This document shows positions 26,744-62,900 of a DNA stretch of 64,000 nt, piece after piece. The DNA comes from Bilabrum cf. latius (taxonomy: Eukaryota), in contig OZ237767.1 of assembly GCA_965178125.1 (NCBI GenBank), positions 1 to 64,000 of the forward strand, read 5' to 3'. The position numbers were made by a program, and so were the translations under genes. Each line of letters begins with the position of its first letter. Within the stretch, counting starts at the first letter, position 1. The notes under the pieces were generated by a model that worked only from the letters and a program-made list of their open reading frames with translations, searched no databases and was not told the origin of the DNA.

Positions 26744-26903
26744 AGGGAACAGGTCGTGGATGCCCTGAGAACGAGCAGAAGACGGCGGAAAATGCCAACA
26801 GAAGACCACAGGGCGATCTTGCGACCATAATGATACACCAGAACCCAAGGTGAATAATCCGATTCTTGGCCTGTTCAACAACCAACTAGACAACATGAAC
26901 GAC

Positions 26904-31600: not shown

Positions 31601-32061
31601 TCGAGGCTGGGTTGCAGGAGCGGCCAGAGCCCCAGCACAGGCCGAAGCCTGCTGCCCCACCGCCCTTTAAGGACCCTAGGCCGGTGAATCTGTCTGGGTC
31701 TGGATTTTGCGGAGAGTGTGAGGCATATCTACACGGGGCTATGGCGGACTAGTTCGGGTTCAAGCTGGCCAAGCAAGTCCTTGAGGCGTGCGTGGTGCCC
31801 CAGCGCACGTCCAAGCTGCTGGACAAGTTCGATGCTCACGCACAGCTAGAGCAGCAGCCTCTGGTGCAAAGAAGGTAGCAGCAAGCAGAGGCAAGCTCGC
31901 AGTCGGGCACTCGTGCATAGTTCCAGTTCAAGGACGCGCACTGGATCCAGCTGTTCGACGACCACAGCGAGGAGTTCTTCTACCACGACGTCACCACGGG
32001 GCGCTCTTAGTGGGAGAAGCCGGCTCGATTCAAGCCCTTCGATATGCAGCATTTGTCATAA
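28672..32061 (+). CDS. ~1130-aa protein with C-terminal WW domain (TAG read as sense)
   Basis: One frame with 12 TAGs (29092, 30481, 30499, 30574, 31051, 31198, 31204, 31402, 31750, 31876, 31918, 32008); WIQLFDDHSEEFFYHDVTTGRS*WEKP; ends TAA 32059. Confidence 0.82.
30813..31020 (+). repeat. Coding 33-bp tandem repeat x6 (ESKSVDEQDQR)
   Basis: Perfect DNA repeats. Confidence 0.92.
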
Positions 32062-32274
32062 AATACCACGATTCGATTTCTTGCCAGCACAGACCCATCA
32101 TCGATCCACAAGGATGCGAGCACGCCCCGTACCGGCGTGAATTCCGTGACAGACTTTTGCAGTATGTGTGCGTCTTGCGATCAATATAGCGCGAGAAGAG
32201 AACATCTATATGGCAGAGCAATCACGCAGCTGCATCGTCAATACAGCTACGCCTGTGTGCAGGTAAACCGCCAG

Positions 32275-33288
32275 TCAGCCGGCCAGTCGGCTGGCTGTTG
32301 CCTGCAGCGCCTCAAACCACGCGTCCCACTGCTGGTCGGGCGGCACCAGGGCTTCGGCCTCTTTCCCTGCGGCAGCCGGCCAGCTGAGCACGATCTGCCG
32401 CTTGCCCTCGGGCGACCTCCGCTCGCTCACCTGTGCGCCCCCAGCCAGCTCTACCTGCCCTTTAGGAATCACAGCCCAGGGCTGTCTCCAAGCCCGCTCC
32501 ATGTCGGCCCCTGTGGTGTACCAACGCAAGAAGGGTCCGTCCAGCACGAAGAACCGCTCCACTGGCCGCTTGAGAGCACCAACGCCCAGCGAGAATCCAC
32601 CGAGCTTCACCATCGGGCCCCGCATCCCCCGCGAAGCAAATTTAATCTGCTTCAGCAAAGAGCTACCGTGCGTACTACTGTCAGAGTGGGAGGCGCTTGC
32701 CCTCTCTGCAGCACGAGCCGATTGCGGAGGGACGCTGCCGCCGCTCGATGCAGTCGAGGAAGCTGCGGTGCCACCAGTGGCGGCTGCAAGAACCGAGCGG
32801 TTCGGCACCACTGCCCGTGATGACGACGCATGATATGGGCTGCCTAAAGCCGGGCTAGATCGCCCACTAGATACCACTGTGGATGCCTTGTGCTGTGCTG
32901 CAGACAGCGTCGCCCGGGCCGGCGAGGAGGGCCGCTGGGCCTGTACCGACGTGGCAAATGGGTTCCCTGGTGGAGCTTGCGAATTCTCTCCACTGCGTCT
33001 ACTTGGCTGCGACTTGCTTGGACCATTCGATGGAGGCATGCTGATTGATTGAGTTGAGAATGGGTTTCCAGGTGCTGGCGACTGTGCGGGCTTCGGCCGT
33101 GTGTCTTGGGTTGCCACTCCGGACAAATTGGATGTAGCTGCAGCTGCAGCGCCACCAGGTCCCCCTTCGAATGGGTTACCAGGCGACACGTTCGGCTGGA
33201 CGGCCGCCGTGGGCTTTGCGTCCCCGAACGGGTTACCAGGGGCAGCTGTCGTGCTTGCGCTTGCAAATGGGTTTCCTGGGGTCGCCAT
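32275..33288 (-). CDS. PH-domain protein with five N-terminal PGNPF motifs (putative endocytic adaptor)
   Basis: MRGPMVKLG...ERFFVLDGPFLRWY...PKGQVEL...WFEALQ; NPF motifs are EH-domain ligands; ends TGA. Confidence 0.8.
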   Translation of the reverse strand: MATPGNPFASASTTAAPGNPFGDAKPTAAVQPNVSPGNPFEGGPGGAAAAATSNLSGVATQDTRPKPAQSPAPGNPFSTQSISMPPSNGPSKSQPSRRSGENSQAPPGNPFATSVQAQRPSSPARATLSAAQHKASTVVSSGRSSPALGSPYHASSSRAVVPNRSVLAAATGGTAASSTASSGGSVPPQSARAAERASASHSDSSTHGSSLLKQIKFASRGMRGPMVKLGGFSLGVGALKRPVERFFVLDGPFLRWYTTGADMERAWRQPWAVIPKGQVELAGGAQVSERRSPEGKRQIVLSWPAAAGKEAEALVPPDQQWDAWFEALQATASRLAG

Positions 33289-33488
33289 TGTCTCAAATAC
33301 TATTTATATCCCCCATGGTTGGTTAACGTGTGCTGCGGGGAGATACCTATCAGTAAGTTTCGAAGGTATTGGTCATGTGGCGCAGGTTGAACCGGAACTG
33401 ATCCATCTGCAGCAGTGGCCAACATATTGCATAGAATAAATTAACGTGGCAAACTTTATTTGCTATCGAACAAATGTGCTCTTTCTAA

Positions 33489-36400
33489 TCAATTCCATCG
33501 GCTGCTTCTAGCAGCTGGCTGCGCGCCGTACTGCCCTTGCATCGGCTGCTGCATGCCTGGCACGCCGTGCATGGGAACCGGCGCCTGCCCCTGGCCAGGC
33601 ATAGGAGCAGGCTGTCCCATCCCTGCATACCCTGGAGGCCCACCAGCACCAGGTGGTATCCCCGCCCCGGGCCCGTACCCGCCCATGGGCGCCGCCGCCG
33701 CTCCCACCCCCGGCCCCGACGAGCCCCAACGAGACCCCCCAGCCGGAGGCATGCCAGCGGCAGCTGCGGAACTCGCAGACGTGGGCGCCGCGCTTCCCCA
33801 GCGCGAAGAACCCCCTGGGGCAGCAGCAGGTGCCGCTGCCGCTCCCCACCGAGACCCGCCCCTTGCCGCCACTTGGCTGCTGCTCCCAGCCGCCGGGGGA
33901 GCTTCAGCTGCTGCTGCTGCCGCCTGGCTGGTTTGGTCCTTCGGGGGCCATGGCTTGAGGCACCGCTTCTTGAAGTCCCTGATCAAAGAGGACACCGTGG
34001 GCGAGACCACGCCCCTCCACTTGAACCCATCGGGATACAGGCTCACCGCGTCGCGCATCACCCTGCCAGACCGGCTGGCGACGAATGAGATCTAGTAATA
34101 CCCGGGCCGCTTGGTCATGGGCGAGAGGAGATAGGCCACTCGCTTGGGCTCCCTCTCGCGCATGTCACGAAGCATGCCGTCCACCACGCCCTCCTGCGCT
34201 GGCCTGAACTTGGGGCTCGCGGAGAGCTGCTGGTACTTCTGCCGGATGGCGTCCAGGTAGAGCACCAGCACCTCCTCAAGCGAGCTGTACTTGTTCCCCC
34301 GCACCTCCAGGGTTCTCCCCAGAGACAAGGGCCCCTTGCTCGGGTCTTTGTTGTGCTCCAGCACATCCACGTGGCAGCAGGGGCCCTCGGCCAGCTTGTA
34401 AGTCAGGGTCAGCCGGTCCGTGCCAGTGCTCGAGGGGCGGAAGAGGCCCTCGAAGGCGGGCCCGCTCTGCAGCTCCTCCTCGACCGACTCCCTGCTCGCG
34501 TTGCGGAAGGCGTGGTGCCCGATGGCGCGCGTGCGGGTGCCGGTCCCGCCGGGGAGCGCCTGTCCCGAGGCGGCAGCAGCTGCGATCTGCCTCTGCTTGA
34601 GCTGCTTCCTCACGGCCTCCATCGCCCACTCCGTGTCAACGTACCGGTCGCAGATGGGCAGGGGCGGCGGCATGCGCATCATCTCTGGCTTCACGGATAC
34701 CATGATCCTCCGCATCACCCGGTCGATGCCGATGACCCGCACTGGGATGGTCGTGTCCCGCTGCAGCATGGCCTGGATGTCCTCCCCGCGAGCCGCCGCC
34801 TGGGTCAGCTCGTCGGGCAGCTGGTCCATCCCGCACTCGGCGCGGATCCTGTCCCGGAACCGCAGCTGCAGCCCACTGCGGCGCGCAGACACCACAACGG
34901 CAGAGTCAACCACTCCGGGCCGCAGGGAGGCTGCTGTCTCTCCCGTCAGCCAGCGGAAGATGGCGGCGTTGCTGGGCGGTGTGTAGGGGTCCCTGCTGGC
35001 CCCGTAGGGCCTCCTGAGCTCCCCCTTGATCCTCTCCAGCAGCCGGAGGAAAGACTGCCTGCCCTTGCTCTGCAGGTCCTACGCGAAGGACGGGAGGTCC
35101 ATCTCCTCCAGCGTGTCACGGGGCTCTGCCACCATCCACACGGACCCAATCGGCTGCTCCGGGTTCTTCGCTTCGGCCTCTTTTTGTTCCCTCGACTTGA
35201 GAAAGCCGAGGTCTCCGCCCAGGTGCACCGCAGACGTGCCGTTGCACACGCCCTCGGCCCCGCACCTGCCGCTCTCCTCGGACCACTGTAGCCTCACCAG
35301 AGCCTCGGCTGGGCTCCAGGCCTCGTGCGGCCAGCAGGCCGACCCCTGTCTTAGCCTCCATCCCACCGCCACCGCGCTCTTGCTCACGGCCGCAGGGTTG
35401 GACACGACCTGCCTGGCCCAGTTCTGCAGCACCCTCTGCGCCCTGGACACGGTCCCCCGCAGCACATCCCTGCACCCCATGGGGTGGTGCGCCACGACCT
35501 AGGACCCGTCCCCGCCCACCAGCGGGTCGTACTCCCTCCCTTGTTCCCTAGCGTCCTCGAGGCCCAGCTGGTCCGCCGCAACGGCCATCTGCACGCACTG
35601 GTCATAGTGGCGCGGGTGCACCCTGAGCGCGTCAAGCGGGTGCGGGTCTGTGCTGAGCATGGTGCGGCGGGCCGAGCGGAGGGCCGCGCGGCGGCGGGCG
35701 ACGGCCGCATCGTCGCGCAGCTCCAAGCCGCGCTCCGTGCCCCCCTCCGCCGCAAGCGCGTCCAGGTAGTCGTCGTCCGCGCCCTCTCCCAGCTCATCCG
35801 GCCGGGCCAGGACCTCGTCTGCCTCCAGACCTACTTGCCCCCCTTCGTCCTCAACGTGCGCATCCGCATCCCCGTCGTCGAAGATCCTGTCCCAGCCCTC
35901 CCCCGCCCCTGCGGCCTCCGCCTCCTCGTCCGCAGCTGCTGCCTCGTGCAGCCGGCCCAGCCGCTTGGATGCCGCCACACCGGCGGCGCCAGCGAACCCG
36001 ACGCACTCGATCATGCAAGAGGCCCGGAGCGCAGACCCGAGGGACCGGGGAAAGCACAGGAAGGGGGCCGCGTTGGCCCATACCCGCCTAGGGAGCACAT
36101 GGTGCCGCAGGAGAGCCGCCCGCGAGTGCAGGCGACCGGCCGCTGCGGCCCCCCCACCGGCGCTCATCTGGCTCACGATGGCCCTCGCCTTCCTGGGGCC
36201 CAGACCGGGCACGAACTGCAGCGCGGGCACCAGGTGCTCCCTCTTGCTGACCGCGTGCAGGTCCACGCCGGCGCACGCGACGCTCTCCACCATGGCGCGC
36301 TCGCCCGCCAGCTGCAGCGCCGTTGCGGGCAGCAGGTGCTGGCACTCAGTCAGCCTAAGCGCCCTCAGGTCCTCGCTAACAGATGCAATGCCTGCCGTGC

Positions 36401-39400
36401 TGCAATGGTTTCCCGACTGCAACGAGCCTCTTAGCTCCCACAGACTGGCCATGGACGCCAGCGGGTCCTGCAGGTGCCTCGCGGCCAGCACAGCGGCACG
36501 GCTCCCGATGGACATGTCGGGCAGCTGCCGCTTCCCTGCAGGGCTGGTAGCCACAGCCAGGGGCAGCTCGGGGGAAGCCCAGGTCACGTGGAAGGTGTGC
36601 GGCTCCGTGTCATGGCGCACCGTCACACCGCCGTCCGCCCTGCGCTCGTACCCCGAGAAGCGCGGCGTCTTGCGGAACCAGTCCCCCCCGCGGGTCCATC
36701 GCCGGCCGTCCTGCGCCAGGTGCGCGTACAAACCGCCCTTGGAGTCTAGCGCCTGCGTGGGCCGAGCCAGCTCCCGCAGACCCCTCGAAACCGCCGCGGG
36801 CCGCAGCGCACCCGACTGCACCTCCATGGCACCAAACCCGCCCTCGGCGTCAGGCCCGCCGTCCATAGCCACCTACCCACCCGCCCCGGCGCCTGCTTCC
36901 TCGTCTTCGTCCTCCTCGTCCGACGACTCAAAGTCCTCGTCGGCGCCCCCCGCCCTCCGTGCCCGTCTCCTCCGCCTCCTGGCGCGCTCTTTGACGCTCC
37001 TCAGGCGGGCGATCTCAACCAGCCGGGCCGCCTCGATGGAGGCCAGCCGCAGCTGGTCCAGCAGCTGGGAGGTGTCCCGCTGGGCCGTGGCCACCACGCA
37101 GCCCGCGTGGGGTGCGTGCTGGAAAATGAGCGACGTCAGCCCCTGCAGCCGTGCATCCCTGCCTCTGGGCAGCTCTGCGCTCGACAGCACTTCCCCCCTC
37201 TGGTCCACCACCGCCGCGTGAGCAGTCCCGTCGGGCATTGACACCGCGCTAATCACTCGCAGCGAGCGCCCTCCCACGGTCTCGGCGTCGTCGTCCACGC
37301 GCACCAGCCCGCCTTCTGTCGCGTCTCCGTCCTCCCTGCCGGCCTGTTTGGCCAGTTTAGCCGTCTGCACGCGCGCCACGGCCTGCCGCACCTGCACGGG
37401 GAGCCGGTACGGCCCCGCCTGCGCAGCCCCTCGGATGGCCCTGGCCAGCTGCCCCTGCGCGGCCGCAACTGCCCTCCGCGTGAGCATGGCCCGCAGGTCG
37501 CTCGCCGCGTCCACCTCTAACCCCTGCTGCACCGCCAGGCTCAGCACCTCGAGCCGGATCGCGTCCACGGCCTCCAGCCGCAGTGACCCAGACCGCAGGG
37601 CATCGATGGGCGCCTCGTCCGTGGCAAGCCCAGCCACCTCTGCCGACCCCGAGTCGGAGAGGTACAGCGGCAGCAGCCTCTGGATGGCCTCGGCTCTGGC
37701 CGCCACCAGCTCCAGGTCCATCGTCAGCAACCCCTCCTTCTCCGCCTGCAGCAGCAGCAGCCACTGCTGCGGCCCGCCCACCCGCGCGGAAAGCTGCCCC
37801 ACCACCACAACCCGCCCCGCATCGCCCCCATCGCACTCCACCCCCACGCCGTCCATGGGCACACCCACCGCGGCATGCTGTCCACCCGGCCCAGACACCA
37901 CGGCCAGCTCTGCACCGCGCCCCGAGCCGTACCCCCCTTGCATGTCCAGCCACTGGGGCCCTCCCCCTCGCAGCAGCCGACCCATCGGGGGATCCTACTC
38001 GTCACACACCTCCAGCCCGAGAGCACCGCCCACCTCGCCCTGCCCGTCCCCGCCCCCGCCCGTCCCCGAGTCACCAGTGCCCCCCGGGAGGTAGCCCCCG
38101 AACTCCCCGCCCATCGCGTCACTGGCCGCGCCGGACCCCCGGGCGTCGGGCAGCTGGGGTGACATGCCTTTCTCCTCGTCGTGCACGAACTCGTACAGAG
38201 GCTTGGCCCGAATGGCGTGCAGCCCAAAGGCGGGGTGCAGCCCGTCGATCTTCTCGAGGCCCTGCTTGGTGGGGCTGGTGCTCAGGTTGCCCAGCCGCAC
38301 GGCCGTCTCCCTCACCGCTTGCCTGAAGGCAGGGTGCCTCCGGAGCTCGCGCTGCGCCACGTGCACGAGCGCCCGGCGGCAGTCGCTCGAGTCCACCAGC
38401 GCGTTGGTCCGCATTGCCTCCAGCGCCGCCTCCAGCCCGATGTCATCCGTCACCGCGGCTCCCTGCAAGGCCACCGCGTCCTCCACCGAGAGCGTCTTCC
38501 TCCCAGCCTCGATGCTCTCCGCGAATGTCTCGGGCCGCAGCATCAAACGGTTAGACAGTTGCCTGGCGCCCGCGGCGCACCCGAGCGTGTACAGGTCGCG
38601 CTTCATGCCCGCCTGGCCGCCGCTGGTGCCGGAACCCCCACCCAGGCCATCCATCGTGGCCCTCGCCCCCCGCAGCAAGATCTCAACATGCGCCGCTGCG
38701 TCCTGCATGGCCAGACCCCCGGTCCCGTCGCACGGATCCAGTGCACTAGGCCCCGCCTGCGCCGCTGCATCCACCCTTCTCGCCGCCTCGCTCGCCTCCA
38801 GCACGTCCAGCTGCCCGTTCTCGAGCGACTCCCGCAGTCTCTACAACAAGATGGCCCTGTTGGCCTGCGCCGAGCACCACTCGGAGTCCAGGTCCAGCAC
38901 CAGCCACACGTGCCTCAACCGCACAAAGGACGGCAGAACCTCCCTGTGCATCATCCAAATCACCACGGGCTCCAGCTTCACTCTGAGCACCCACCACAGC
39001 ACTCTCCTGGCAAACTCCTCCAGCGACTGCATGGCCACCGCACCCTGCTCGGCCTCTAGCACCAGCTGCAGCTCGCTCGCCCGCTCCTGGGCGGATGCGG
39101 CGGCTGCGTGGCTGCCCAGCGAAGCCACTCTGAACTCGTGCGCCAGCTCCCTCCTGAGCGCCCCCTGCAGCCTGCCCGCCATCCACCGCGCCTCTGTCTG
39201 GATGGACAGCGCAGAGGCGGTTGCACCCGGCAGGCTGGGCTCGGACAGCACCTTGAGCTGCTCGCCCGCCGCCTCCTGCGTTTCCGCGTCCCCGAGTCCC
39301 ACCGTCCTCGCGTCGATCCAGTCCTTGCCCAGGGGAGAGCGCCCCGCCAGCTCCCTCACCGCCCGCAGCGATGTCTCCCTGCGCCCCTGCCAGAAGAAGA

Positions 39401-40541
39401 GCCGCTCGGGACCGTTGGCCCGTCGGGCGCGGTTGTCCGTCGGAGTCAGGAAGAGCGCGGCCTGCGCCGACGCACCCATCCCCGCCGTGGCATCCTCCCC
39501 GTCACCGCCCCCCGCCACCCTCTCCTCCTCCTCGATCTCCGCCCTCGTCTTGATCTGCAGAGCCGCCCTTCCGTCCTGCCCCGCCTGCTCTGCGTCGATC
39601 AGGAGATCGTCCCTGTAGGCCATCATGAGGGCCTGGTCGCCCGCCCCCATCCGCTCTGCCGCGGCCGCGTCCACCTCCTCCTCCTGCTGCCCCATGCCCG
39701 CGAGAGACATGAGCTGCATCCCCCTGGACCCGAACACCTCCTCGAACTGCCGCACCTGATCCATAGAGGCGCCGCTGGCCAGCGCGGTGGCCTTGGCCCG
39801 GTTCCTCTGGTTCCGCTGCGCCCGTCTCTCCTCCTTGGTCAGGGCGAGGAACCCGTCCGAATCGTCGCTGTCCACCTCGGCAATCTCTTCCTCGAGAACG
39901 TCCGAGGGGCCCGGCCCGCCCGAGCCAGCGCCAGAGGACGGGCCGACTGCGGAGGGGGGAACCCCCGCGGGATCCAAGGGATCGAAAGGCATTCCAAAGG
40001 GGTCTTGTCCACCCGGCTGCCCGGCAGCTGCCACGGCAGCAGCGTCCTCCTCCGCCTCCGTGGGGCCCAGACCCTGGTTCTCTCGGATGAGAGCCAGGTC
40101 GTCGTCGTCCACCTGCACGCGGCGCTTCTGCAGCCGCTTCCGCTTTCGCTTCCCGCGGCCACTACCATCGCTTCCGTCTGAATCATCGTCTCCGTCAGAA
40201 TCGCCAGAATCGTCCGATGATGAATCATCGTCGCTGCCGCCCTCGTCCTCGCTGCCAGCCACAAGTCCTTCCAAGTTCCCTTCTTCATCGGCATCCTCAT
40301 CCTCTTCGTCCCCACTCCCATTGACAAGCCTGCCATTCTCGTCCTCTTCTCCCGCTTCTGCGTCAATGTACTGCCTCAAGATGGCCTATCGCTCAGCATC
40401 CGACACTGCGTACCCGCTGTTCGACTTGCTGCTACTAGGGCCGGAACCGTCTTGTCCCTGGGCGTCCGGCGAGCCTTTGGAGCCACTAGTAGATTCAGCT
40501 GGACTTAAAACGGGAGATTGATCATTTGAAGAGCTAGACAT
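33489..40541 (-). CDS. SPT6: Transcription elongation factor / histone chaperone SPT6, ~2350 aa (TAG read as sense)
   Basis: Acidic N-terminus, STSPTKQG..IDGLHP, HhH LQFVPGLGPRKA, PLDALRVHPRHY, S1 region, tandem SH2 (FRPSSTG; YPDGFKWRG); one frame with TAGs at 40386, 38841, 37995, 36873, 35499, 35079, 34092; ends TGA. Confidence 0.92.
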
Positions 40542-41259
40542 GGCAGATGGAGACAGCTACGCAATTCAGACGGAGCAGAGACGCCTTGATCGTGCCGCAA
40601 CAAATGCACTGGTACAGTGACAACCTTTAGATAAGTTAGCACCGCAACTACCGATTGAATGCCAACAAATAGGACAGGTAGTCCGGTGGCGGGCCGTCTT
40701 TGGGTGCGGCTCGGCCAGCGATCGTATATTCCCAGAAATTGAACCTTACAAAGCTACAACTAGAGGAATTACAATATTTCGTAATACGAGAGCAGCATTA
40801 GTAACTTTGAGAGCATGCCAGATGATTTGAATGCAATAGAACGTATTCTTGACTCCCCATTCCGGCATTTCCTGCCTGCTGCATTAGGAGCGTTCGGGGG
40901 CTGTGTTGTCGGCTTTGGAGGGCATTATTTTACGGCACCAGCACCCCTAGTGATTGGAAATAAGTAGAGATAGAATTCATTAAGATGTTAGATACGTGTA
41001 GGAGCTTTTTAGATTGCAACAAGCGTCATCGCAGATTTGTGTGCGTCTATCCGTACGGATGTGGCCCCCACCTGTGTACCATCTGATCCATTCCGATGTT
41101 CGTTTCGCAGTACGGGCTAGCGCGACATCCGCCGCAAGAGTAGGCAGCGTTTTTGGTTTGTACACATTAATAAGATAGACGCTTCGGCACGATTTGCAGC
41201 AGACTCCAACTACGTCTTCCTTAGCTGCCGGAGCTCTCTCGGTCACCACTGCATACGCT

Positions 41260-41598
41260 ATGGAGCCTGGCCGCTTTCGGGTCGTGCAGGCAGCGTGGGG
41301 CGGGTATCTTCCAAAAGGGCGCACTCTCCCGTTTCCCATAGCTGTACTCATGGTAGCAGGGAGCGGCGCGGCAACCTTTGGCGCCGGCGACTGGCTGGCG
41401 CGTTGGGCCGGGATCGGTGCCTTCCTGGAGAGGGATCACTTTGCGGCCTCGGCTGGGAGCCCCAAGCCCACTCTGAAGGATGCCAATGCGCCATAGGAGC
41501 ACGGTATCGATGGGAGCCTCCCTACCAGTGGTGGGAATGGCGGGGCAGCGGGACAGGCACCGCGGGATTCAGCCGAGGGTGACAATGAGCGGAGCTGA
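41260..41598 (+). CDS. Small single-TM protein, unknown
   Basis: ATG 41260, hydrophobic FPIAVLMVAGSGAATFG, TAG 41494 read through, TGA 41596. Confidence 0.4.
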
Positions 41599-42005
41599 CG
41601 TCGTGTGCCATAGGCTGCGCCTATGATTGTCGTCGCTAGTCGTTGTTTGGGTTGCACAGTAGCACAGCAGGGAGAATACATTGAACTCAGAACAAGCTAA
41701 CGTGCCTTAATTTCGAGTGCACTGATCACACCCACGTTCTGACAGAGCCGACCACTGGCAGTTCCACGAGGACAAGTCAGTCTTTAGTATTTCGACTTAC
41801 GTTTCCGACCAAGTGATCCAAAACAGATGTGAGAAGTAAACCATGCAAGCAAAATCCCACTAGGCACCACCTACCTGACGTTTTGAGGTTAAGGGTGCCT
41901 TGGAAGAGCAGTCTTTCTGTGGCGTGCCTCCCATCGTAACCCTTACACTGCTCTCTCTTATCCAGACGCAGTCTGGTGATAGCTACAACCGTATCTATCG
42001 CGATT

Positions 42006-45000
42006 ATGTATCATGCATTGTTTGGGAGTGCTTTGATTGCAACTTTAGCACCAGGATCAGGTTGGGCAACAGAATTGCAGGACAGGCGAATGGTCGGTGA
42101 GCCGTCTGGGACACCCCCCAGACGAATCGGAGCAGGCACTGACGGGGGAATGGGCCAATCTAACTTATTATCAGGAGATGCCTTTGGGGCGTCTTTGTCC
42201 GCAGCTGGCCCTACCTTGCTCGTTGGAGCCCCATTCGACTACTCCGCCTCCGCCTCCGACTCCGACCGGGAGGCAGGCGCGATATACAGATTGAGTGTCA
42301 CAGCGAGCGGCAAAGTTGAAACTGATTCTATTGAAAAAACAAATGAGCGCTGGCGCTTTGTGGGGAGTAGCATGATTTCGTAGGAAAACGCAGCTGGGTA
42401 TGCGGTGACGTTGCTTTCGGAGGACATAGTACTGTTCGGAAGCCCACTTTACTCCACATTAACGGGTAGATCAGGTGGAATATCGGTAGTCGATGTTAGT
42501 GACGGTCTATCACCAGAGTCTCCATACTAGTTCAAGCCAATGACCGGCCGTGGTGGGCAGGCAGTGGCGCTACTTGGTGACTTGGACGGTACTTCAAGCA
42601 CACTGGAAGTGGCGGTGCTGAAAGATGGGACAAGCACCACCAGTGGTAGTGGCAGCGACGCCACTACCGGGGGCGGTACCATCGCCGGAGGTACCACGGG
42701 CAGCAGCAGCCAGTCAAGGTCCGACAGCGCAGAGCCGCCCAAGGGCACTCTAGTCATCTACAGCGTAGAGTCGACGGGCACGCAACTTTCCATTTCCCAA
42801 GAGAAGGCATCCATCGAGTTCAATGGGCGCTCTCTCGTTGAATTCGGCATGGACGTTGCGTGCTTGGGTGACATGGACCTGGACGGGAGTACCGTGGAGG
42901 TGGCAGTCAGCAGCACGGGGATCCGCACCAGCGGGGGCAGCGATGGGGACGGAGGGTACCACATCATCTCGCTGTCTGCAACACTCCAGCAGACAAAGAT
43001 TAAAACGTTCTCTCCGTTTGCAGGCCGGAAGCAGAAGCTCGGGTACAGTGCGACTTTCCTCGGCGATATAAACTCGGACGGCATCGCGGGGGAGCTGGCC
43101 GTCGGCTCCGATGGCCCTGACGGGCTGGGGATGATCAGCATCTGCTTCCACCGTCGCGACCTTACTCTCTTCAGCCGCAAGGACCTCAAGGCAGTGCAGA
43201 CCGTGCACCCGCTGACCCCGGTGCACTTCGGCAGATCCATCGCAAGCATGGGCACCGGCCTGGATGGCGATGAGAACACGGTCACGCTAGCGGTCGGAGA
43301 CCCGGGGCAACAGACGGGCACTAAAGATCAAACCGCAACCACGTCGGGAGTGTTCGTGCTGGGCATCAAACGGACTAGGTACTTGCCTGCAGCCAAGGTT
43401 GCCGAAGCCGCTGCCTCCACGCCGCACTGCCCCGAGGACTCGGCCGCCCCGTGCCGGCGGCTGCTGTACACAACCCACGACACGATCCTCATGGTGGCAC
43501 CGGGGGGCGCCCCAACCGCGGATGTGGTCCGCTGGGACAAACCGTCGGCCACGATCTTAAGCGACAAGGCGACTGACCTGCTCGCGTCTGACAGCGAGCT
43601 GATCCGCATCGACATACAGCCCAGCGCGATGTAGGCCGGTGGAGTGCTCGGCCCGCCGCCAGCGGGTGACCCGCATCGCCCATGGGTGCGGTCTGACTAC
43701 GCCACGGTCTAGGTGAACGGGGCTGCCTGCATCATATCTGCCCTAGATCGCCCCAACGGTCGCATTTGGTGCCTGCCCAAGGCACTGCCTTCCCTGGCGG
43801 GCTGGGCCAGGGTGTCGGTCAAGTTCTGGAACGGGCACGAGAGCAGCACGTCGAGCAGTGAGACAGCAGTCGCTGGATCAAGGTCTGACCCTACAGCATG
43901 CCAGCACAAGGAGGTGCCGTGCGTGGTGTTTGGCCCGATTGCCATGTACAGGGATAGCACGGCCGAGCCGCCCAAGCTGGATCTCGACGGCGGCTAGCAG
44001 TTCCGCTTCAAGTCAGTCGGCCTCGTAAGTCCCGGTCAGAGTTCATGGCCATCCGAGCTCAAGCTGATGATCGGCCCGTTTGAATGCGCGAGCCCTACGG
44101 TAGCGTTCGGGACGACCGCTGCGGAAAAAGGCGTAGCCACCGTCACGTGCCCATCGACCCCCGCAGGCATCGGCGGGCCACACCGTGTGTATGTGGATGG
44201 GTTGCGGGGCGGGATCGCGGCTACCCTGCGAGACGAACTTCAGAGCTCTCTGGAGCAGATGGCTCGGGCGAACGTGCCCGAGACCCTGCTGGAGTACGAG
44301 GCGCCCGTCGTGTCGGGTCTCCTGCCCAGCGCAGAGATCGCGGAGAGGGATGGAAACGTGACCGTGACCGTAGTGGGCGACAATTTTGGTCCTTCTATCG
44401 CCGGGGTAGACTCGATCTTTGTAGGCGGAGTGCGCTGCGGCTCCGTGTCGTACCTTTCTGCGTCCCAGCTCAAGTGCGATGACCTGCCAGCGAACGCTTT
44501 CCCCCGGCGCGATGTGGTGGTGCGCTTCCGTGGAACGGCCACGACTGCCTCTGGCCGCGACTTCGTGGAGAGCAAGGGCGGGGCCAACCTGCTGCAGGTA
44601 CCAGCGGCTCCCATCGTGGTGGGCGCACAGCCAGCCGAGGTGCCCTCGACGGGAGGCACGGTGACTCTCTTCGGGCCCAACCTCGACGATCCTCTGGACT
44701 GGGTCATGGTGGGGAGCCAGACCTGCAACCCGCTCGTGCCCGACACCGAGTTTTCTGTCGAGTGCGGCGTCCCGGCCGGGGTAGGGAAAGACCTCAAAGT
44801 GAAGGTTCGCAGCCAGCTCGGGAGGGTCACCACCTCGAGCCTGGGTCTCGTGTCGTACTCTGCCCCAGTGATCGACGCGGTCAGCATCTCGCCTCAGCCC
44901 GTGTACTCGGGTGCTGGGGTGCAGTACACTGCGGTGATCAGAGGCGAGCACTTCGGCCCAGCGCTCAACTTTGATCTCACTGTATCGGTGGGTGGATAGC

Positions 45001-51000: not shown

Positions 51001-51206
51001 TGGTAGCCGCCGGTGCAAGTGCAATGGGCCGCTCCAGGCGCGATCTGGGTACAGCGGCGAGCACCCGCGAGGCCAAGGTCCAGTCGGCGCGAGACGCCGC
51101 ACCGGGGGCAGCGGCCGCGGCAATGAGCAGCCAAAGAGATTCGCACGAAGATGCGGCGTCGAATCCAGGGCAGAATATGGATCGGAACTGCGCGGAGGAA
51201 GTGTGA
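42006..51206 (+). CDS. ~3066-aa receptor-like protein: signal peptide, FG-GAP (integrin-alpha-like) repeats, multiple IPT/TIG repeats, FN3, Cys-rich region, multi-pass TM C-terminus (TAG read as sense)
   Basis: Single intronless frame with 12 TAGs (42381, 42528, 43632, 43710, 43995, 44997, 45138, 45819, 46794, 47073, 47709, 48594); LGDMDLDG/LGDINSDG..LAVG; P.VTSVSP..GG.VTV.G.NFG; CADGYSGLLCATCVPGY; YWEVVIMLRK; ends TGA. Confidence 0.9.
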
Positions 51207-51537
51207 TTTCGGATGCTGTCGTTTCACTCCAATCAGTGCCTGCGACTAAATGGTCGACATGGCCATATCACTGTCTTACGTAGTATTTCTACCATCGCTA
51301 TTTCTATGCGGAACAAAATAGAACAGATCCACACTTGACCAGGGCCTGCCTACTCGGAATGTGTGAACGAACTTGCTGCAGGAACGCGAGGCCACTTGAC
51401 GTTTATTTCATGTTTAGATCGGTCAATTAGCCCATTTAATTCTATTTCTGGGGTTCCCGTCGACTTGAACTGGGGCTTGACGCCTCTTTGTATCCTTTCG
51501 AACAGCATGTCTGCACCGGACCCCGATCTCCTTCCTA

Positions 51538-52830
51538 GTGAGAGTTTCAGGCAGATCAAGTGTCGCCTTGCAGAGCCGATTTGCCTTAATTATCGAGCAT
51601 GTATCCCATATTCCATGGACATACCTGCACGCTTGCTGTTCGCAGGAGACGTTGCAGCCGTACATGCGCATCATTACAGAGATGCGCGGAAACTTGGACA
51701 AGTTGAAGACATACCTCGGACGTCGACTGCGGCGATCAGAGTGGGCGGAATTCGTCACCCTTCCTAGGGGATTTTAGAGATATCTGGATCAAGCTACCAG
51801 TGGTCTAGATCGTAAAAGATAGGAGGATATGAGCTTCATTTCTGCTGCTCCTACAAGTGCCGAAACCATGCATGTGCGCGACCGCAACGAGAAAGCTAAG
51901 CAGATGCACGAGTTGATGTGGGAGCCTCTGCTTCTTGGCAAATCGGTCGATGGTCGAGCAAGTTTTCGCTATATCAGCGGTCATGCAGCCCGTGTGCTGC
52001 CAGACTATAAGCTTATTGCATGCCGCTGGCTAGAGACCTCGCTTCTATCGAGGCAGCTGTTCGGGATTGATGCAATCTACGTAGCGATGGAGAGATTCGC
52101 AGCTAGAAATAGTTATTTCGAATCAGTGTCTGGGCGCAGAGAGTGCGGTCAATTCACACCATATCCTTACTCCAAAGGACCCACCCCCGATATCACGGAG
52201 GATGGGCCATGCGTACACATGGCTGGGCTAGAGCTTGTGCGGCTCTTCCTCGACCTCGAGGCATTGCTCGAGTCTGCCGGGCATGGAGCCTAGGCAATAG
52301 TTGTGCCCGAGGGGTGTCAAGGTGAAGGCATGCAGGTGGCTAGTGCGGGAGAGGTGCGGGCGCTGAGCGGGGCTGCGGCTGCAGCTGCCATGTTGCTGCT
52401 GGGCGGGTCGAGGCGCACGGTGCTGGCAGCGGTGAGAGAGATCGAGGTGGAGCGGGGCGCTGGTGTTGAGCGAGAGCAGGTAGGATCAAATGGGGTACAT
52501 GCAGCTGCCACTCAATTTGTAGGGATGCACAATGCAGCTGCTGACGTCAAATTATTTGCAACGGAGAGCGGCAGCAAGTCTGCTATGCGTGGCAGTGGGG
52601 GCCTCGTTGGTACGGGCCATGATCGGCTGGCCGAGGGCGCTGCAGAAGCAAGAGTCGCTGATCGAGAAGCTCATTCAACTGGTACTCCAAGCTGCAGCCT
52701 GATATTCTCCATCAGTGGAGGCAGCGCTGTGTACGGGGAGTCGCAGCACTCAGTCGCGCGGGGCAGGTTGCAGCCGGTGAGCGTCTTGCAGGCCGATTTG
52801 GTGCAGCTTGTGTGGCCTTCCTTCTAGTGA
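51538..52830 (+). CDS. Unknown protein, paralog A (start uncertain; TAG read as sense)
   Basis: ORFs 51538-51777, 51829-52293 and 52303-52827 are in one frame joined by TAGs; ends TAG-TGA; similar to paralog B. Confidence 0.6.
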
Positions 52831-53082
52831 AATACAAAGTCGTCTAAGGCTAACTATTGCCTTGCCACATGAGGCAATGCTGCACCGTGAGGTCCAGTAT
52901 GCTTCGTATAGTGTTTACATGCTGCTACTGTAGGCCTAATTTGCAAGTTCTGACTTCATAGCTAGCCCTTTGCGCATACCCGGTGGATTCTTCTATTTAA
53001 TTTAGTCACGCTGACCGCCAACGGCCTATTCCAAACTCCAGATACTGTGTGCTTTCACACAATAGGGGTGAGGATTAGAGAT

Positions 53083-53680: not shown

Positions 53681-53880
53681 NNNNNNNNNNNNNNNNNNNN
53701 NNNNNNNNNNNNNNNNNNNNNNNNNNNNNNNNNNNNNNNNNNNNNNNNNNNNNNNNNNNNNNNNNNNNNNNNNNNNNNNNNNNNNNNNNNNNNNNNNNNN
53801 NNNNNNNNNNNNNNNNNNNNNNNNNNNNNNNNNNNNNNNNNNNNNNNNNNNNNNNNNNNNNNNNNNNNNNNNNNNNNNNN
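53681..53880. other. Assembly gap (200 N)
   Basis: Run of N. Confidence 1.
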
Positions 53881-54847
53881 GTCGATAGCAGCAAGACCTT
53901 CCTGCTTACCTGTCATGCGTGGTGGACGCCAGGATCAGCGCAGACACCATCCGGAAGCTCGCCGGCTGGAGACAGGAGCTGACTTCTTGGCACCGGTGCA
54001 TCCGGCCAGCAATCCGATCTAGGCTAACGGTGTCTTAGCGACCGTCTGACCCAAGGATCATGGCCGACCAAAGCTGGATTCGCGTTGAGGGTGATAAGCC
54101 CCTGCATTCAGAACGACATACCTTTGAGCGAATGTGGAGGCCGATTGTCGGCGAAACCGACAGCAGCAAACCAATTTCAACGCTAGCACCTTTACCCCAG
54201 CCCACTGATAGTCTTCTTGCGCACCGCTGGCTGGAAACGGCAGTCGTTGCCCGCGTGCATTTCGGGGTCCGTGCTACCTCTTTCGCGTGCAAAGCGCTGC
54301 AGTAGCTCTCGGAGATCAAGCAGTGCGCAGATCTAGATTCTCGGCCGCTCGGCTCAGGTTAGGCTACTCCAGCCAGCAATAAAGTAGCAGCGGACAAAAG
54401 CATTAAGACCGCTGGGGAACACATGGCAGTCCTATACATCAACTTGGAGGCGCTACACGACCGTGTCACGATGGATGGATCTTGGACGGCGGCGGGCATT
54501 GACCCACGCGAAGTCCGTGCCATGAGCGGAGCCGCCGCAGGTGCTGCAATCATGCTGCTAGGAGGGCCCAGGCAGGCAGCTTGCGCCATCGCAAGCGAGT
54601 TGAATGCTGCTTCACGAGTGCGGTTGCAAGCGGCAGGCCAGCGCGCCTCTACAGTCGCGGGGCTGACAGGCGTCGATGGAGCGGGGAATGAAGCGAGGCT
54701 GGGTCGTCTGACCGGTGTTATGTAGACCAGGGACAAAACGAGGCAAAAAGAACTGCGCGATACACCGTGCGTACTTGCCGGTAGCCCTAGGCTGGAACAC
54801 TGGCAGCGCTTGCCCAGTGCCAGGTTGCTGCTCTCGCTTCAAGAGTG
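53881..54847 (+). CDS. Unknown protein, paralog B (5' end lost in gap; TAG read as sense)
   Basis: One frame from the gap to TGA 54845; MWRPIV / RWLETAVVARVHFG / EVRAMSGAAAGAAIMLLGG match paralog A. Confidence 0.6.
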
Positions 54848-55223
54848 ACGCGTGACAAGCTCGTATAGGAAGGAACCATGGTAGGCAACTGTGGGGCTAG
54901 GGGCAGACGGTGGTCGAGTGAATTGGGAGGCCTTAACTACAACGGCTTGATCAGCATGGCATACACGCCCGGAATACCACTATCATTAAGCGGAGGCGCG
55001 TGTGTCTCTTCAAGCAAGGTATGATACCACCCCACAACCTGCTGCCTACCAAGCCAAGCAGGCCTATCGCCACCTCAAGCCCCAGTCCACCAGGCCTACA
55101 GAGAGAATCCATGATATTACTGATGTCCACACAAGAGCCTGTATCGCCTGTCAATTTTAGCCTTTAAATGGTCAAATTCGCAGCCTCATCCAGGTAAGGG
55201 CATCCTCATCGCCTGATCAGCGA

Positions 55224-55812
55224 TCAGGTCGAGGCCTCGATTTTGGCGCGCTTCTGCCCGATTCCAGTAGAACCGAATCCTCCCGCACCGCGTGTACTCG
55301 CGTCCAGGTCCTCCACCTCGCTCACTTGGGCGATCGCGATACGCTCCAGGATGAGCTGAGCAATGCGGTCTCCTCGCTTGACTTCGAAGTCCTTGTCAGA
55401 CAAATTGAATAGAATCACACCAACGTCGCCCCGGTAGTCCTCATCAATAACACCAGCCCCTACGTCGATGCTGTGTTTCCATGCGAGGCCGGATCTCGGT
55501 GCTGCGAAGATGTAGAAGCGAGATTGCAGCAAACAATACATACGAGCGCGGAATAAACGGGGGTGCGGGAGTATCCACGAGTACATCAAGCTAACCTATT
55601 CTTCCATAGGTACCAGATGGTAGGGCAATGGCAAGATTTGTCTTGATGAGGGCTTTACCGCGCGCGGGCACAAGTCCATCTACAGCAGCGGCTAGGTCGT
55701 ATCCAGCTGCGCCACTTGAGCCCCGAATTGGCAGGACGGCGTGCTCAGACAGCTTTTTTACTTGCAATACTAGTTCATCAGAAGCAGACGAGCTCGAAAC
55801 AGCGGCCGCCAT
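55224..55812 (-). CDS. DUT: dUTP diphosphatase (trimeric dUTPase), 2 exons
   Basis: AAGYDL, YGRI|APRSGLA across GT-AG intron 55502-55595, [25 protein letters not shown]; ends TGA. Confidence 0.96.
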
Positions 55813-55950
55813 GATATTTTGGGATTTTCAATTTTTTTTAAAATGTTGGGCTGCAATCATGATGTGATGAGTGCAGTCAGAACAACTGTCTGCATGCATG
55901 CATGCCGCATTCATGTATGCTTGCATGTTCTTGGCGTGCTATGGTAACGG

Positions 55951-57636: not shown

Positions 57637-57794
57637 TTAATAAGTAATAATAAGCATCATTGCGCACACGTATATGCGCTCCGTATTCTCTGGGAGTCCA
57701 CGCGATTGAACCTGACGCCGAATTACAATGCAATGACCCACAGCAGACAGGTTTGCATGCTTTCTGGCTACACTTTTCGCAGATTTCATTGTAA

Positions 57795-59516
57795 ATGAGG
57801 TCAATTCATGCAATCACGCTCATGACAAGCTGTTTAACTGCGCTTGCGGTTCAGATTAACCAGTATAACGCCTCGATTGAGTTCGTATCCTCGGCTGGAG
57901 ATCCGAGGGTCGGCCAATTCATGAATGGAGACTACTGGGTCGTTGCCGAAGACGGGCTGGAGCTCAAAAATACAGCACCATATGTAAGATGCTTTGATTG
58001 TCTGGCAAAGCCGGACTATCCGTTCTGAAATCATAATGAGTATGACGCGCAGCATCGAATACTGCAACTCGTGGTAAAACGACACATCCCAATGTCAAGA
58101 TCGCAGTATGATGGCCAAAGGAATGGCTTTGAGATCAACTGTGACAGCATCTACCAGCAGGGCTTCGATCATCGAATCGCGGGGTTCAACGCGAGCAGGG
58201 TGCCTTCCTTGCCACGCGCTCTGAAGTCCGGGGATCGTGTCGTGAAAGGGCTGTCGCTGCCGCCAGGCAAAGTCGACCACAATATTGCGCTTTAGACAGC
58301 CATTGTCGTCACCGTGGTAGACTCGCCCCCTCCCGCTAACGCGTTCCGGCCGCCCTACTTTGGCGCGACCCCCACTGTTCCAACTGCCTGGAAGGCGAGC
58401 GCGGGAGCACCTGCTCGTGCTCGGTCACAAGGCGCGTCTCTCTACTGGCTTCTCTCGGACATGAACCTCGCACGACTGGAGAACAAGCCGCTGGCCCCGC
58501 CCCCTGGCTTCAACAACAGCGCGCGTCCCTCCTGGCGATGGGCCTCCCGGCGCTTCCAGAGGCTGCAGCTCGACCACCTCACCAACTGGGTGAGCAGGCA
58601 GATCCACCCCGTGGAAAACATGCCCGGCTACGGTGCCGACATCGCCATGGACACTGGTGATTTCGCCGCGCGGATGCTGCTCAACGACACGGCCCAGGCA
58701 GTCGGGCAGCCAGGATCACCGGCGCAGCTGGCCCTCTACGGATACGTTCAGATGGGCCTGGACATCTGGGGCATCATGTAGAACAACGGGAGCTGGCCCG
58801 CCAATGGAGGCCACGACGAGGGCAGGAAGCTGCCTCTTTCCTGGACTGCCGTGGTGCTGGGAGACGAGCACATGCAGCAGGCAGTCGCGGGCGTTGATCC
58901 GATCCGTTTCCAGGAAAGTTCCGAGATTCAGGTGCACCCCGAGAACGAGCACACGACCCCGCTGTGGGGTGCCACCACCACCGCCGACGAGGACTACTGG
59001 AAGGTGGTTGTCACCGGGGACGGGGACCGGATCGAGGCTGACCCGTATGGCTGGATTGATGGGGGCGCCTTCCCCGGTTCGTTCTATCAATACTGCTGCA
59101 ACTCGCAGACGTGGAAGATGGCGGGTCTGGTGCAGCAGCAGTCCGCACCCGTGCTGCAGACCTTCAACTTCACCCCCATGATCGATTACGTCGTCCGCTG
59201 GAACTCGATCGGGACCTGGGCCCAGCCGGACCCCTGCGCGCCCCCCACCGGCACCTGCTCCGACGGCAGCGGCAAGTGTACCGGTTACATCAACAAGCCC
59301 TGCGGCCAGGGCGGCAAGGGCAAGTGCCAGCTGTCCATGGACGGGTATAAGACGGAGTTCGGGCCCGACGGCAAGGGCGGGTGCATCCTGGACAAGGACC
59401 CATCGGACGGGACCGGGCGGTTTCCGTCCATGCATGCGCAAGACGCGAATCAGGGAGACTACGTGTCCTCATTCGCGATGGAGATGTACAAGCTTTACGG
59501 CAAGCAGCACGCGTGA
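57795..59516 (+). CDS. Secreted protein resembling an uncharacterised bacterial family, 2 exons (TAG read as sense)
   Basis: Signal peptide; VGQFMNGDYWVV; GTAAG...CAG phase-0 intron 57984-58106; TAGs at 58293 and 58779; FRPPYFG, NGGHDEGRK, DPYGWIDGG; ends TGA. Confidence 0.78.
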
Positions 59517-59900
59517 GCTATGATTCGATCTCGAGAAGGCTGTGGAAGTGGACCCGGATCTGATCAAGAGAACGGACTCCAGTCTCACTGGTACCACGAG
59601 ACATTTGGCTTGATGATCCAGTTTGGGCTCCGCCCGCAAGTCTGCGGTGGATCCGGGTGCCGGCGTGAATACACGGCGGCCGCTGAAACGGTGGATCCTG
59701 CACCAAGCTTGCTTGTTACATACAATCCGGATACATGAAGGCTGTTTCATAATTGAGAATGGCTTTTTGCGCATTGCAACCTCTGTGCTTCACAAAATGG
59801 ACACCGGATTTCTACCTTACGCTAGATCCGGATTTCGGATCTAATTGACCAACATCCAGGGATCCGGATCCCGGATGGATTGCGGTTCAAGATCCGACAA

Positions 59901-62900
59901 TTATCCGCTTGCACCACTAAAACGACCAACCATCGCATCCACAGCCTTCTTGACGCTAATTGGGCCGGCCAAGCGCCCCGACGCAGGGAGGTGGTACGAG
60001 GCAGATCGAATCTCATCCTCGATACATGAACCGCTACATGGAAGGGCACTTGGGTGCGCCCCCAGCGTCCAGAATGGCATCGTAGCTGCCATCTCTTCTT
60101 GCAGGCGGATACCCGCAGCCGCGAGTGCCTGCCTGGCCTAGTACGAGAGGGATCGTGGGCTCGGCACCGAGTGCAAAGAGAAAGAGATATGCTGCCTCGC
60201 ACGACTGCACAGCTCGCTGGACACACCTTCAAACAACCCGTCTGGCACCCTGTGCACCGACGGAGCGACTGCGGCCTGAAGCGCCGGGCACACTTTATAA
60301 TGAGCAATAGGAACTTTACCTGCTGCCTGGCTGCCACCGGCGGTCTGGGCATCTCCAGAAGCCAGCATGCAACGACCGCTGGCGGGGAGCTCGGCGGTGT
60401 CCGTCATTGCCGCCCTGTACGCATCAAACCACTGCAGCCACACGATCCGGGCCAGGTACCACTGGGCTCGTTTAAAATGACCCGGTGCGAGTTGGGCTTC
60501 GTGATCGGTTGCCGACTGCGGTCTGCTGTCTCGGGCGCTCCGGGGACTTGCCTAATCGTGCAACACATGGTGCAGCAAGAGGTTGTCACATGTCTGCACC
60601 AGATCACACACCATCTGACGGCAGCAAGCCTTCAGATCTGCCTGCGCCACGGGAGGCTCCTCTTCAAGCTTGCACCCGAAAAACTGGACCGAGAAGGATT
60701 CGCTAGGCTTCCACCCACACTGGTCCGTCCTCAGCCCGAGCCTGAACCTCCGTCGCACATCGAGAGCATCCGGGAGTGTCGCGGGCCCAGCTAATATTCC
60801 CTCTGTGTGCCTCTGCATGGTGCCGTGGTGGCGCTAGGTTGCACTGGCATGCCGATCCACGGAGCACGCGTGACACAGGTTCACCGTGGCAAGGCCGAGC
60901 AGGCAGGCACATGTAACCGCTGCAATGTGTGCGACTTCGAGGCTGCTTTGCGGAAGCAGTAACGCCCCTGACCCTCCCACGACCAGAATCGCAACCACCA
61001 GGCAACCACAAACGATCGTCACGTCAAGGCACTTCTCGAAATAGTCAGCCCGCCGCGAAGGTCCGAAGAGTTCGAAGACCCACTTAAGCGGCCTGAATCC
61101 GAACTCGTCCTCGAGAGGAATTTCTCCGATTTGGAGTGCAATAACTACTAATCCACACAGCCTGACTAGCTTGGTGCACACATCAAGCATAACCCCGAGA
61201 CAGTATAAAACCAAAAAAACGTACTGTCCTGCTTCAATGTCGCGCAGGTGTTGATTCCAATACGTAAATATGGGAGCTGTAAGTGGCATCGAGAAAACCA
61301 AAACTGCCACGGGAGGCACAGTGAGACACACCTTGGATGACATCAGTGCTGTGTACATTGTACGCGTAGTAGCCTCGTTTGCAGGATTGCCGCGGTTGCG
61401 ATGTCCCACGCAAAATATACCAGGGAGACTATGGCCTTGGTGTTGCAGCGCCTTCCACCACATGGAAGCAAGCACAATACTGCACAAAACGACAGCTGAC
61501 ATGCCCCATATGGGCCAATTCTGCGCCCCAAGGACAATGGATGCTGTCAACTCAGCCTGAGTGAATGCAACCTTCAGATGCTTGGATGGCGAGTAACACG
61601 GGAATCGACTTGTTCTGGTGCTCCCGGTACTCTGAGACACGACTCGTCCCGTGCCGAGCCCAGCGGCCGCGGCCTGCCACGACCGATCACTGTGCCATGC
61701 AGTGATGTCCTCTGGAAGCATATCCATGTGATCCGCCAGACACATCCGCGTATCGTCGCAAGAGGTGTACAGCCCCCTTGACACGATGCTATCCAGTTGA
61801 ATTGCCATGTACATGGCACCCACAAGCGAGCTCGCAATGCTGAGCAGCATGGTCGACGTCCACAGTGACAGGCAGGGCATTTGCGAATTCAATACCACTG
61901 AGGGTCTCCTATGCACATGTTCAGCAGCACCGCAGGACAGCCAGTTCACCGGCGGCAGGCTTGCCTCGCTGAGGTCGCCATCGGCAGGGGTGTAGTCGCT
62001 CGGGATTACGCATGCCAGGCAGTGGGTGATGGCAGACGGCAAACTGAACGGCCTGGGCATTTGTGACCAAAGCACACTTCGAACACCTCTGTCCCACAGT
62101 GGAGCGATGCACGGGCGAAGCATCCAGAAGGCCAGAGCACCCAGGCAAGCCAGCACGTGCGGCGTGCTTCTATGAAGCAGTGCGGACTGCACCTGCTCGT
62201 CGTCCAAGTCCAAACCAGCACCACCTGAAGAATCATCTGCCTCAGCTATGATCAGGCTAAACTGCATCATGGCCATGGGCATGGCACTGACCGCAACGGC
62301 AACAACCAGCCATGCAACGAGCAGAAGGCCGGCGATGGCCGAGCTTGCCCTGCACCAGGTCAGCATGCGATACCCAGTCCCCAGCTGCATCAGCCGTTTG
62401 CCCTCTTCCAGCTTCTCCTGAAGCCTCTCTCTCGAGCTGCGCTCCTCGCTGAGCGCACGATCTCGCTTTTGCTGCGTGCTCGCGACAGCAGCGGCAGTCA
62501 GGCGCATTGCGACTGAGCGATCGATCCCTTGGCCTTTGAGCATGTATTCGGGCAGACTGCGAGAGGCTGGATCGGGACCAGCACCTGCACTGGGCCGAAG
62601 TGGTGACGCAGCGGGTAGTCCGGGTACATCTGAGGGAGCTAATGCCCCTGTCATTGGGTCTGACGACGACGAAGCAGCCGGCTCGCTTGCAGCGTGAGGG
62701 GAGCTTGAGATGGAGCCCGTCCGAGAGGACTCCTGTCGCACGACTGCTTGTGTCCGCGAGCATCTGCCTGTTGCTTGATGCCTCCACTGCTTGGTTGGGC
62801 ATTCCGATCTGCGAGCCAAGATCGATTGCTCGTTCGCAATATATCCGATCCAGTCCGGCAGCTGCTTGTCCTTGCCTGGTGTCCCAAGATCCATGCTAGG

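Follow-up and report, generated by a model that had tools for sequence, protein, structure and literature searches.

UAG as a probable glutamine codon and UAA as a probably retained stop codon at a chromosome end of Bilabrum cf. latius

Introduction

Until 2017, no nuclear genetic code was known in which UAG and UAA differ in meaning, and the cases described since then come from a handful of lineages (PMC5304391; PMC11687900). In the fornicate Iotanema spirale, which has a non-ciliate nuclear code of this kind, UAG alone was reassigned to glutamine (Gln), and UAA was kept as a stop and is the primary one (PMC5304391). The ciliates Hartmannula sinica, Trochilia petrani, and Protocruzia tuzeti use NCBI translation table 15, with UAG as Gln and UAA and UGA as stops, and 93.5–100% of the aligned C-termini of ciliates with UAG = Gln are at UAA (PMC11687900). 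UAG and UAA are also uncoupled in the rhizarian exLh (Sainouroidea), in which UAG encodes leucine, no gene ends in UAG, and 56 UAA stops were counted versus 15 UGA stops (PMC5304391). In the green alga Scotinosphaera, another case of UAG-only reassignment outside ciliates, UAG encodes serine, and translation still stops at UAA (PMC8271138; PMC11687900). Here, we describe the genes in a stretch of 64,000 nucleotides from Bilabrum cf. latius (assembly GCA_965178125.1, contig OZ237767.1, positions 1 to 64,000), hereafter called the window, which carry TAG codons in frame and end in TGA or TAA.

The genes in the window are probably translated by a nuclear code that reads UAG as an amino acid, most likely glutamine, and in which UAA and UGA still terminate translation, UGA being the common stop. 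The codon table is supported as one of the NCBI table 15 type, that is, the Iotanema type, and represents another case of a known rare kind. It differs from the published cases in stop usage and base composition. TGA closes 13 of the 15 gene ends, and the GC content across the window is about 59%, whereas UAA is the main stop in Iotanema and at nearly all aligned ends of the UAG = Gln ciliates. Compared with exLh, the stop usage is reversed, and TAG is exchanged with CAG and GAG. Codes in which both UAA and UAG (UAR) encode Gln, as reported for hexamitin diplomonads, the algal orders Dasycladales, Cladophorales, and Trentepohliales, oxymonads, and Amoeboaphelidium, share the Gln meaning and TGA as the main stop with the window (PMC5304391; PMC6299283; PMC11687900), but they also read UAA as Gln, and no TAA occurs in frame here. 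An affinity to aphelids was considered and rejected, because the GC content of Amoeboaphelidium is about 40% (PMC10608142) and because UAA is read as Gln in this organism.

The serine meaning of UAG known from Scotinosphaera is unsupported here. The signal TGTAA was present behind one of 14 gene ends and absent behind the other 13. TGTAA is the polyadenylation signal of green algae. In contrast to the UAG = Gln ciliates, the window, a chromosome end of at least 64 kb, carries a (CCCTAA)n telomere. The telomeres of ciliates are typically built of different repeats, and their DNA is typically rich in A and T. In the literature covered, which excludes subscription journals and supplements, no GC-rich non-ciliate with UAG = Gln only was reported apart from Iotanema. 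A GC-rich case dominated by TGA, from an assembly that extends to the telomere, would show that the split between UAG and UAA is not tied to the AT-rich base composition and the prevalence of UAA stops in the known cases.

Results and discussion

TAG, but not TAA, within coding frames

When TAG was taken as a stop, as in the standard code, the longest frame in the window consisted of 1027 codons. When TAG was taken as a sense codon instead, the longest frames had 3088, 2358, 1306, 1196, and 1052 codons. In 16 frames comprising 15,019 codons, with some 5′ parts being untranslated region (UTR) or intron, we counted 76 TAG, no TAA, and no TGA. The nine best-supported genes (11,571 codons) contained 53 TAG and no TAA. 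When this DNA was read at offsets of +1 and +2, TAA occurred 33 and 51 times and TGA 239 and 284 times, respectively; thus, the TAA triplet is not rare as such. TAA was also common in the flanks of the frames.

The share of NAA in the sum of NAA and NAG was 0.24 for CAR (158 CAA versus 500 CAG), 0.22 for GAR, 0.26 for AAR, and 0.22 for TTR. If TAA were a sense codon like TAG, these shares would predict about 24 in-frame TAA for the 16 frames and about 17 for the nine best-supported genes, and the Poisson probabilities of finding none are about 4e-11 and 6e-8, respectively. A preliminary description of this DNA had stated that TAA never occurs inside exons, with the reservation that TAA would be scarce in a GC-rich genome in any case. 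The counts bear out the statement, and the reservation does not account for the absence, since some two dozen in-frame TAA would still be expected. One property of the counts tempers this result: as TAA and TGA served as the limits of the frames, the zero for TAA arises partly by construction. The lengths of the frames (3088, 2358, 1306, and 1196 codons) nevertheless make the zero meaningful.

In-frame TAG in contigs of other runs and in a relative

The TAG codons recur without change in the contigs of runs X2, X4, and X8, which come from three other studies. All 22 pieces listed, in which at least 16 TAG codons are spanned, were free of other letters. One contig of X4, 8954 nucleotides long, covers 41972–50886, including all 12 TAG codons of a giant gene for a protein with IPT/TIG, FG-GAP, and TRP-like regions, and an X2 contig covers 35323–39446 of the gene for Spt6, both without a single other letter. 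Two stretches with GT..AG ends are skipped in these contigs: 124 bases of a small two-exon gene (from 40986 to 41111) in X4 and X8, and 143 bases in X4 that correspond to an intron in the 5′ UTR of the giant gene (41829–41971). Such skips are the pattern expected of spliced RNA, the kinds of these runs being guessed and no RNA run being on record as a carrier of this sequence. The identity in three other runs, together with the splice-like skips, makes sequence errors or RNA editing unlikely.

Run X9, labelled "protist metagenome", contains a relative that is about 92–94% identical to the window over 31100–51099, with 1596 differences, and the codon mapping, to which the following counts refer, covers 40 of them. 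All five TAG codons under these differences were changed, four of them to CAG and one to GAG; four lie in the WW-domain gene and one in the giant gene (Table 1). Among the other changed codons, 24 of 32 changes were silent. The exchange of T and C at the first base of TAG and CAG thus behaves as a silent change, as predicted by TAG = Gln.

These comparisons also bear on the notion that the in-frame TAG are artefacts, such as assembly errors, pseudogenes, or RNA editing sites. We found no evidence for it in the window, and its probability is close to nil: the identical sequence recurs in the contigs of the three other runs, including those bearing splice-like skips, the silent changes relative to X9 indicate purifying selection, and 76 TAG occur yet no TAA or TGA does.

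Meaning of TAG

The one TAG position that is well conserved among homologues is codon 89 of gene 58029 (Table 1). Of 18 homologues, 9 carry Q at this position and the others K, R, D, or S; E is absent. Together with the exchanges between TAG and CAG in X9, this position leads us to conclude that TAG probably encodes glutamine.

Several positions are at odds with this assignment. E stands opposite TAG codon 251 of gene 58029 in the 96% identical protein P0003 and opposite TAG codon 238 of the 1306-codon frame in the 64% identical protein P0123; with the GAG in X9 at 31918, E is found at three of the eight positions for which a close or fairly close relative is available. In Spt6, one TAG site aligns with L or F and another with E or T, and the TAG in a gene for an SBF-like transporter aligns with T. 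In addition, the sample of compared TAG positions is small, and the small part of the X9 differences that was mapped to codons limits the weight of the exchange counts.

The E residues in P0003, P0123, and X9, to which the E of human Spt6 at one TAG can be added, are what speaks for glutamate as the meaning of UAG, with UAA and UGA as stops. However, four of the five TAG codons are CAG in X9, where 24 of the 32 other changes are silent, so that four E-to-Q replacements in five codons would lie far above the replacement rate. As E is also absent from all homologues at the conserved codon 89, whereas Q is found in half of them, we consider glutamate unlikely. The probability of leucine or serine is low. 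Leucine would fit one of 11 compared TAG positions, at which L or F is found, and the others show Q, E, T, or CAG/GAG. The residues next to TAG were uninformative (Q 1.29-fold, E 0.90-fold).

Gene ends

With TAG read as sense, the 15 gene ends comprise 13 TGA, two TAA, and no TAG (Table 1). All 13 stop positions given in the preliminary description, 11 TGA and the TAA at 32059 and 59901, were correct, and the TGA at 21092 and that of the small two-exon gene at 41596 were added. The C-termini that are fixed by homologues, about three in number (gene 58029, dUTPase, and NAGLU), are at TGA and never at TAG, and no TAG is needed as a terminator at any of the 15 ends. A TAA TAA at 1837–1842, adjoining an open reading frame (ORF) at 1843–3954, was examined as a third TAA gene end and was not counted, the ORF entering a 331-bp subtelomeric repeat.

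TAG codons are unevenly distributed. The gene at 17741–20896 on the reverse strand has four TAG in its last 25 codons, including the sequence TAG TAG CCT TGA at its end (17738), and TAG TGA closes the frame at 52825. Overall, six TAG lie near another TAG versus 1.3 expected. The accumulation before the TGA at 17738, a point that counts against a purely sense UAG, may leave room for some use of TAG as a stop. Such clustering would suit an ambiguous UAG that is read as an amino acid inside genes and as a stop near some 3′ ends, as in Condylostoma and karyorelict ciliates, or that is subject to leaky suppression. This is improbable in view of the ends, none of which requires TAG and the homologue-fixed ones of which are TGA, and in view of the spread of TAG throughout the frames of 3088 and 2358 codons. 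In the known ambiguous codes, the affected codons are regular stops too, which is not so here. The codes of Condylostoma, Blastocrithidia, and karyorelicts were therefore rejected as models: TAG is the sole stop codon found in frame in the window, and it is required at no end.

Probable termination at the two TAA

Two genes end in TAA, the WW-domain gene at 32059 and a membrane-protein gene at 59901 (Table 1). In the 38 codons beyond the stop at 59901, the frame meets a TAG, then another TAA (59817–59819, 27 codons on), and finally a TGA; reading past 59901 would thus give two TAA in 38 codons versus none in 15,019. The GC content falls from 0.59 to 0.47 behind this TAA. Past the TAA at 32059, the GC content at third codon positions (GC3) decreases from 0.80 to 0.54, and the drop in composition (GC, GC3) past both TAA resembles that seen at TGA ends. 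The WW domain of the first gene occupies residues 1157–1184 of 1196 and is complete 12 residues ahead of the end.

The contig of the X9 relative is aligned until 32079, 18 bases past the TAA that ends at 32061, and then a skip of 128 bases follows. At the TGA of Spt6, the alignment to X9 resumes 9 bases outside the stop. The insertions and deletions relative to X9 that are listed in coding frames comprise 6 and 12 bases, that is, multiples of three, and in Spt6 the frame is regained through a pair of one base out and one base in at a distance of two bases. Those listed in the non-coding DNA upstream of the giant gene are not multiples of three.

The evidence that UAA still terminates has gaps that lower its weight. 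The window contains two TAA ends, and neither is covered by a homologue: for the last 350 residues of each of the two proteins, no C-terminal homologue was found among proteins of 192–613 residues. A HMMER search with the last 1200 residues of the 1306-residue protein gave one match, which covers query residues 23–191 alone and leaves the C-terminus uncovered. Codon-usage log-odds across the stops separated the coding part from the flank weakly. Furthermore, the frame behind the TAA at 32059 stays open for 253 codons, which we read as the shadow of the gene on the opposite strand at 32275–33303, with an overlap from 32275 on.

This open frame is among the features that would be expected if UAA and UAG had both been reassigned to Gln, with UGA as the sole stop and TAA merely rare in a GC-rich genome. 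The prevalence of TGA at the gene ends fits as well, and coupled change is the usual case (PMC5304391). This explanation is nonetheless very improbable. It leaves the complete lack of in-frame TAA unexplained, given the number expected and the numbers found out of frame, and no pair of long coding frames joins across a TAA when TGA is taken as the sole stop. The second TAA shortly past 59901 and the break in the X9 alignment shortly past 32061 argue against it, too.

TAA might instead be avoided or unassigned, neither decoded nor terminating, if both TAA ends were mis-modelled, for instance through unseen 3′ introns, and UGA were in effect the sole stop. Introns exist in this genome, and the two genes that end in TAA are without C-terminal homologues. 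On the other hand, no intron-like motif (GTRAGW ... YGCAG) was found in the last 600 nucleotides of either gene, and the composition shifts right at both TAA. An eRF1 that reads UGA and not UAA while UAG is sense would, moreover, be odder than those of the known UAG-only codes. We regard this explanation as highly unlikely.

There is strong evidence that TAA is not a sense codon in this code. That it is an active terminator is the weakest link of the argument, as this conclusion comes from two ends and from the consideration that it would be stranger for a codon to be neither read as an amino acid nor used to terminate. Taken together, the in-frame counts of TAG and TAA, the change in composition at both TAA ends, the second TAA behind 59901, and the alignment break behind 32059 support the claim, put forward in the preliminary description, that UAG alone was reassigned and UAA is still a stop.

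Possible mechanism and age of the code

A tRNA-Gln(CUA), one base away from tRNA-Gln(CUG), would read UAG and not UAA (PMC5304391), since its C would form a mismatch with the A of UAA at the wobble position. A single eRF1 would in addition have lost or weakened its grip on the third-position G of UAG and would still recognise UAA and UGA (PMC5304391). The eRF1 changes described in UAG-only codes are T32G in Iotanema and L69A in the rhizarian (PMC5304391). With such a tRNA and eRF1, C-to-T changes from CAG to TAG would become silent and those from CAA to TAA would remain lethal stops, which would result in 76 TAG against no TAA. A scan of the 64-kb window detected no tRNA genes, Rfam gave no match in it at the gathering score, and no eRF1 gene was present among its domain-scanned proteins. 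A full genome would open the way to the two predicted components, the tRNA-Gln(CUA) and an eRF1 that no longer senses the G of UAG.

Two database proteins bear on the age of the code. P0123, the sole database relative found for the 1306-codon protein, is a fragment of 169 residues (window 62925–63503, reverse strand) that ends just before a TAG position (codon 299; Table 1). P0003 begins at the first ATG downstream of TAG codon 89 of gene 58029, though the family is conserved upstream of it. Judging from these positions, both appear to be standard-code gene calls that were cut by in-frame stops, which suggests that the relatives behind them share the code. None of ten TAG-free fragments starting with ATG had an exact match in the protein collection. 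The genes of this organism, in any run in which they are found, need to be translated with table 15, since standard-code calls cut the proteins at every TAG; P0003 and P0123 appear to be examples of proteins cut in this way.

Whether the code change, or the spread of TAG as a sense codon, is very young seems doubtful. For a young change, all five TAG under the mapped differences are CAG or GAG in X9, and none of these differences is a C-to-T change that makes a TAG on the X9 side. Against it, P0123 and P0003, at 64% and 96% identity, appear truncated at TAG positions or upstream of them, which points to an older, shared code with a fast turnover between TAG and CAG. If TAG still terminates translation in the X9 relative, this organism and that of the window would form a natural before-and-after pair for the reassignment of a nuclear stop codon. 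Such a pair, at about 7% DNA difference, would to our knowledge be the closest one.

Other genes and repeats of the window

The features of the window are listed in Table 1. The telomere array together with the satellite behind it identifies the window as the end of a eukaryotic chromosome.

Table 1. Coordinates of genes, selected TAG codons, and repeats in the window
Feature	Position	Strand	In-frame TAG	End	Remarks
WW-domain gene	about 28672–32061	+	12	TAA, 32059–32061	Frame open over 28471–32061
TAG codons of WW-domain gene	31750, 31876, 31918, 32008	+			CAG, CAG, GAG, and CAG in X9, respectively
Spt6 gene	33489–40541	−	8	TGA	2358-codon frame; Pfam SH2_2 (4.4e-44) and HHH_7; alignments to Spt6 in PDB
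Small two-exon gene	40815–40986, 41111–41598	+	4	TGA, 41596	
Giant IPT/TIG, FG-GAP, TRP-like gene	42006–51206	+	12	TGA	No TAA or TGA in frame
TAG codon 1294 of giant gene	45819–45821	+			CAG in X9
Membrane-protein gene	about 59901–63749	−	6	TAA, 59901–59903	1306 codons
TAG codon 299 of membrane-protein gene	62925–62927	−			P0123 ends one residue ahead of it
Gene 58029	57795–59516	+		TGA, 59514	69-base intron at 57984–58052; without Pfam domain
TAG codon 89 of gene 58029	58293–58295	+			
TAG codon 251 of gene 58029	58779–58781	+			
dUTPase gene	55224–55827	−	0	TGA, 55224	Two exons; Pfam dUTPase (3.6e-29)
NAGLU gene	24083–27166	−	0	TGA	Pfam NAGLU (4.3e-109)
Gene ends at TGA	6946, 14163, 17738, 21092, 24083, 26904, 32275, 33489, 41596, 51204, 55224, 55951, 59514			TGA	
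(CCCTAA)n telomere	1–977				162 copies
331-bp subtelomeric satellite	974–1756, 7016–8960, 9311–10223, 10574–11817				Follows the telomere
Internal CCCTAA telomere-repeat arrays	9150–9312, 10413–10575, 12007–12460				
53-bp repeat	12496–12923				
Gap of 200 N	53681–53880				

In addition to the genes in the table, the window contains the gene for the SBF-like transporter (domain match 5.8e-57) and a RUS/UVB_sens gene (2.6e-66), both of which carry in-frame TAG. The family of gene 58029 is mostly bacterial and consists of proteins labelled as Myxococcota or Deltaproteobacteria and of metagenome proteins, with identities of 30–43%; the few homologues in eukaryote transcriptomes reach 53% identity, and many cysteines and glycines are invariant. 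In the neighbourhoods of a protein atlas, the NAGLU clusters are bacterial, and the RUS clusters are dominated by plants. A translation of approximately 16830–17000 on the reverse strand gives a near copy of the C-terminus of the NAGLU protein, and this stretch is probably a duplicated fragment.

In X4 and X8, the contigs that cover Spt6 stop at 40691 and 40692, and those that cover the small two-exon gene begin at 40786 and 40795, resembling transcript ends. Intergenic stretches are replaced or deleted in the X9 relative compared with the window. Two related ORFs, at 51481–52827 and 53883–54845 on the forward strand, flank the 200-N gap and lie in the part of the window with the lowest GC content (0.51). 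In the protein encoded at 17741–20896 on the reverse strand, a unit of about 130 residues recurs, and DDDDGSSRQ is repeated eight times.

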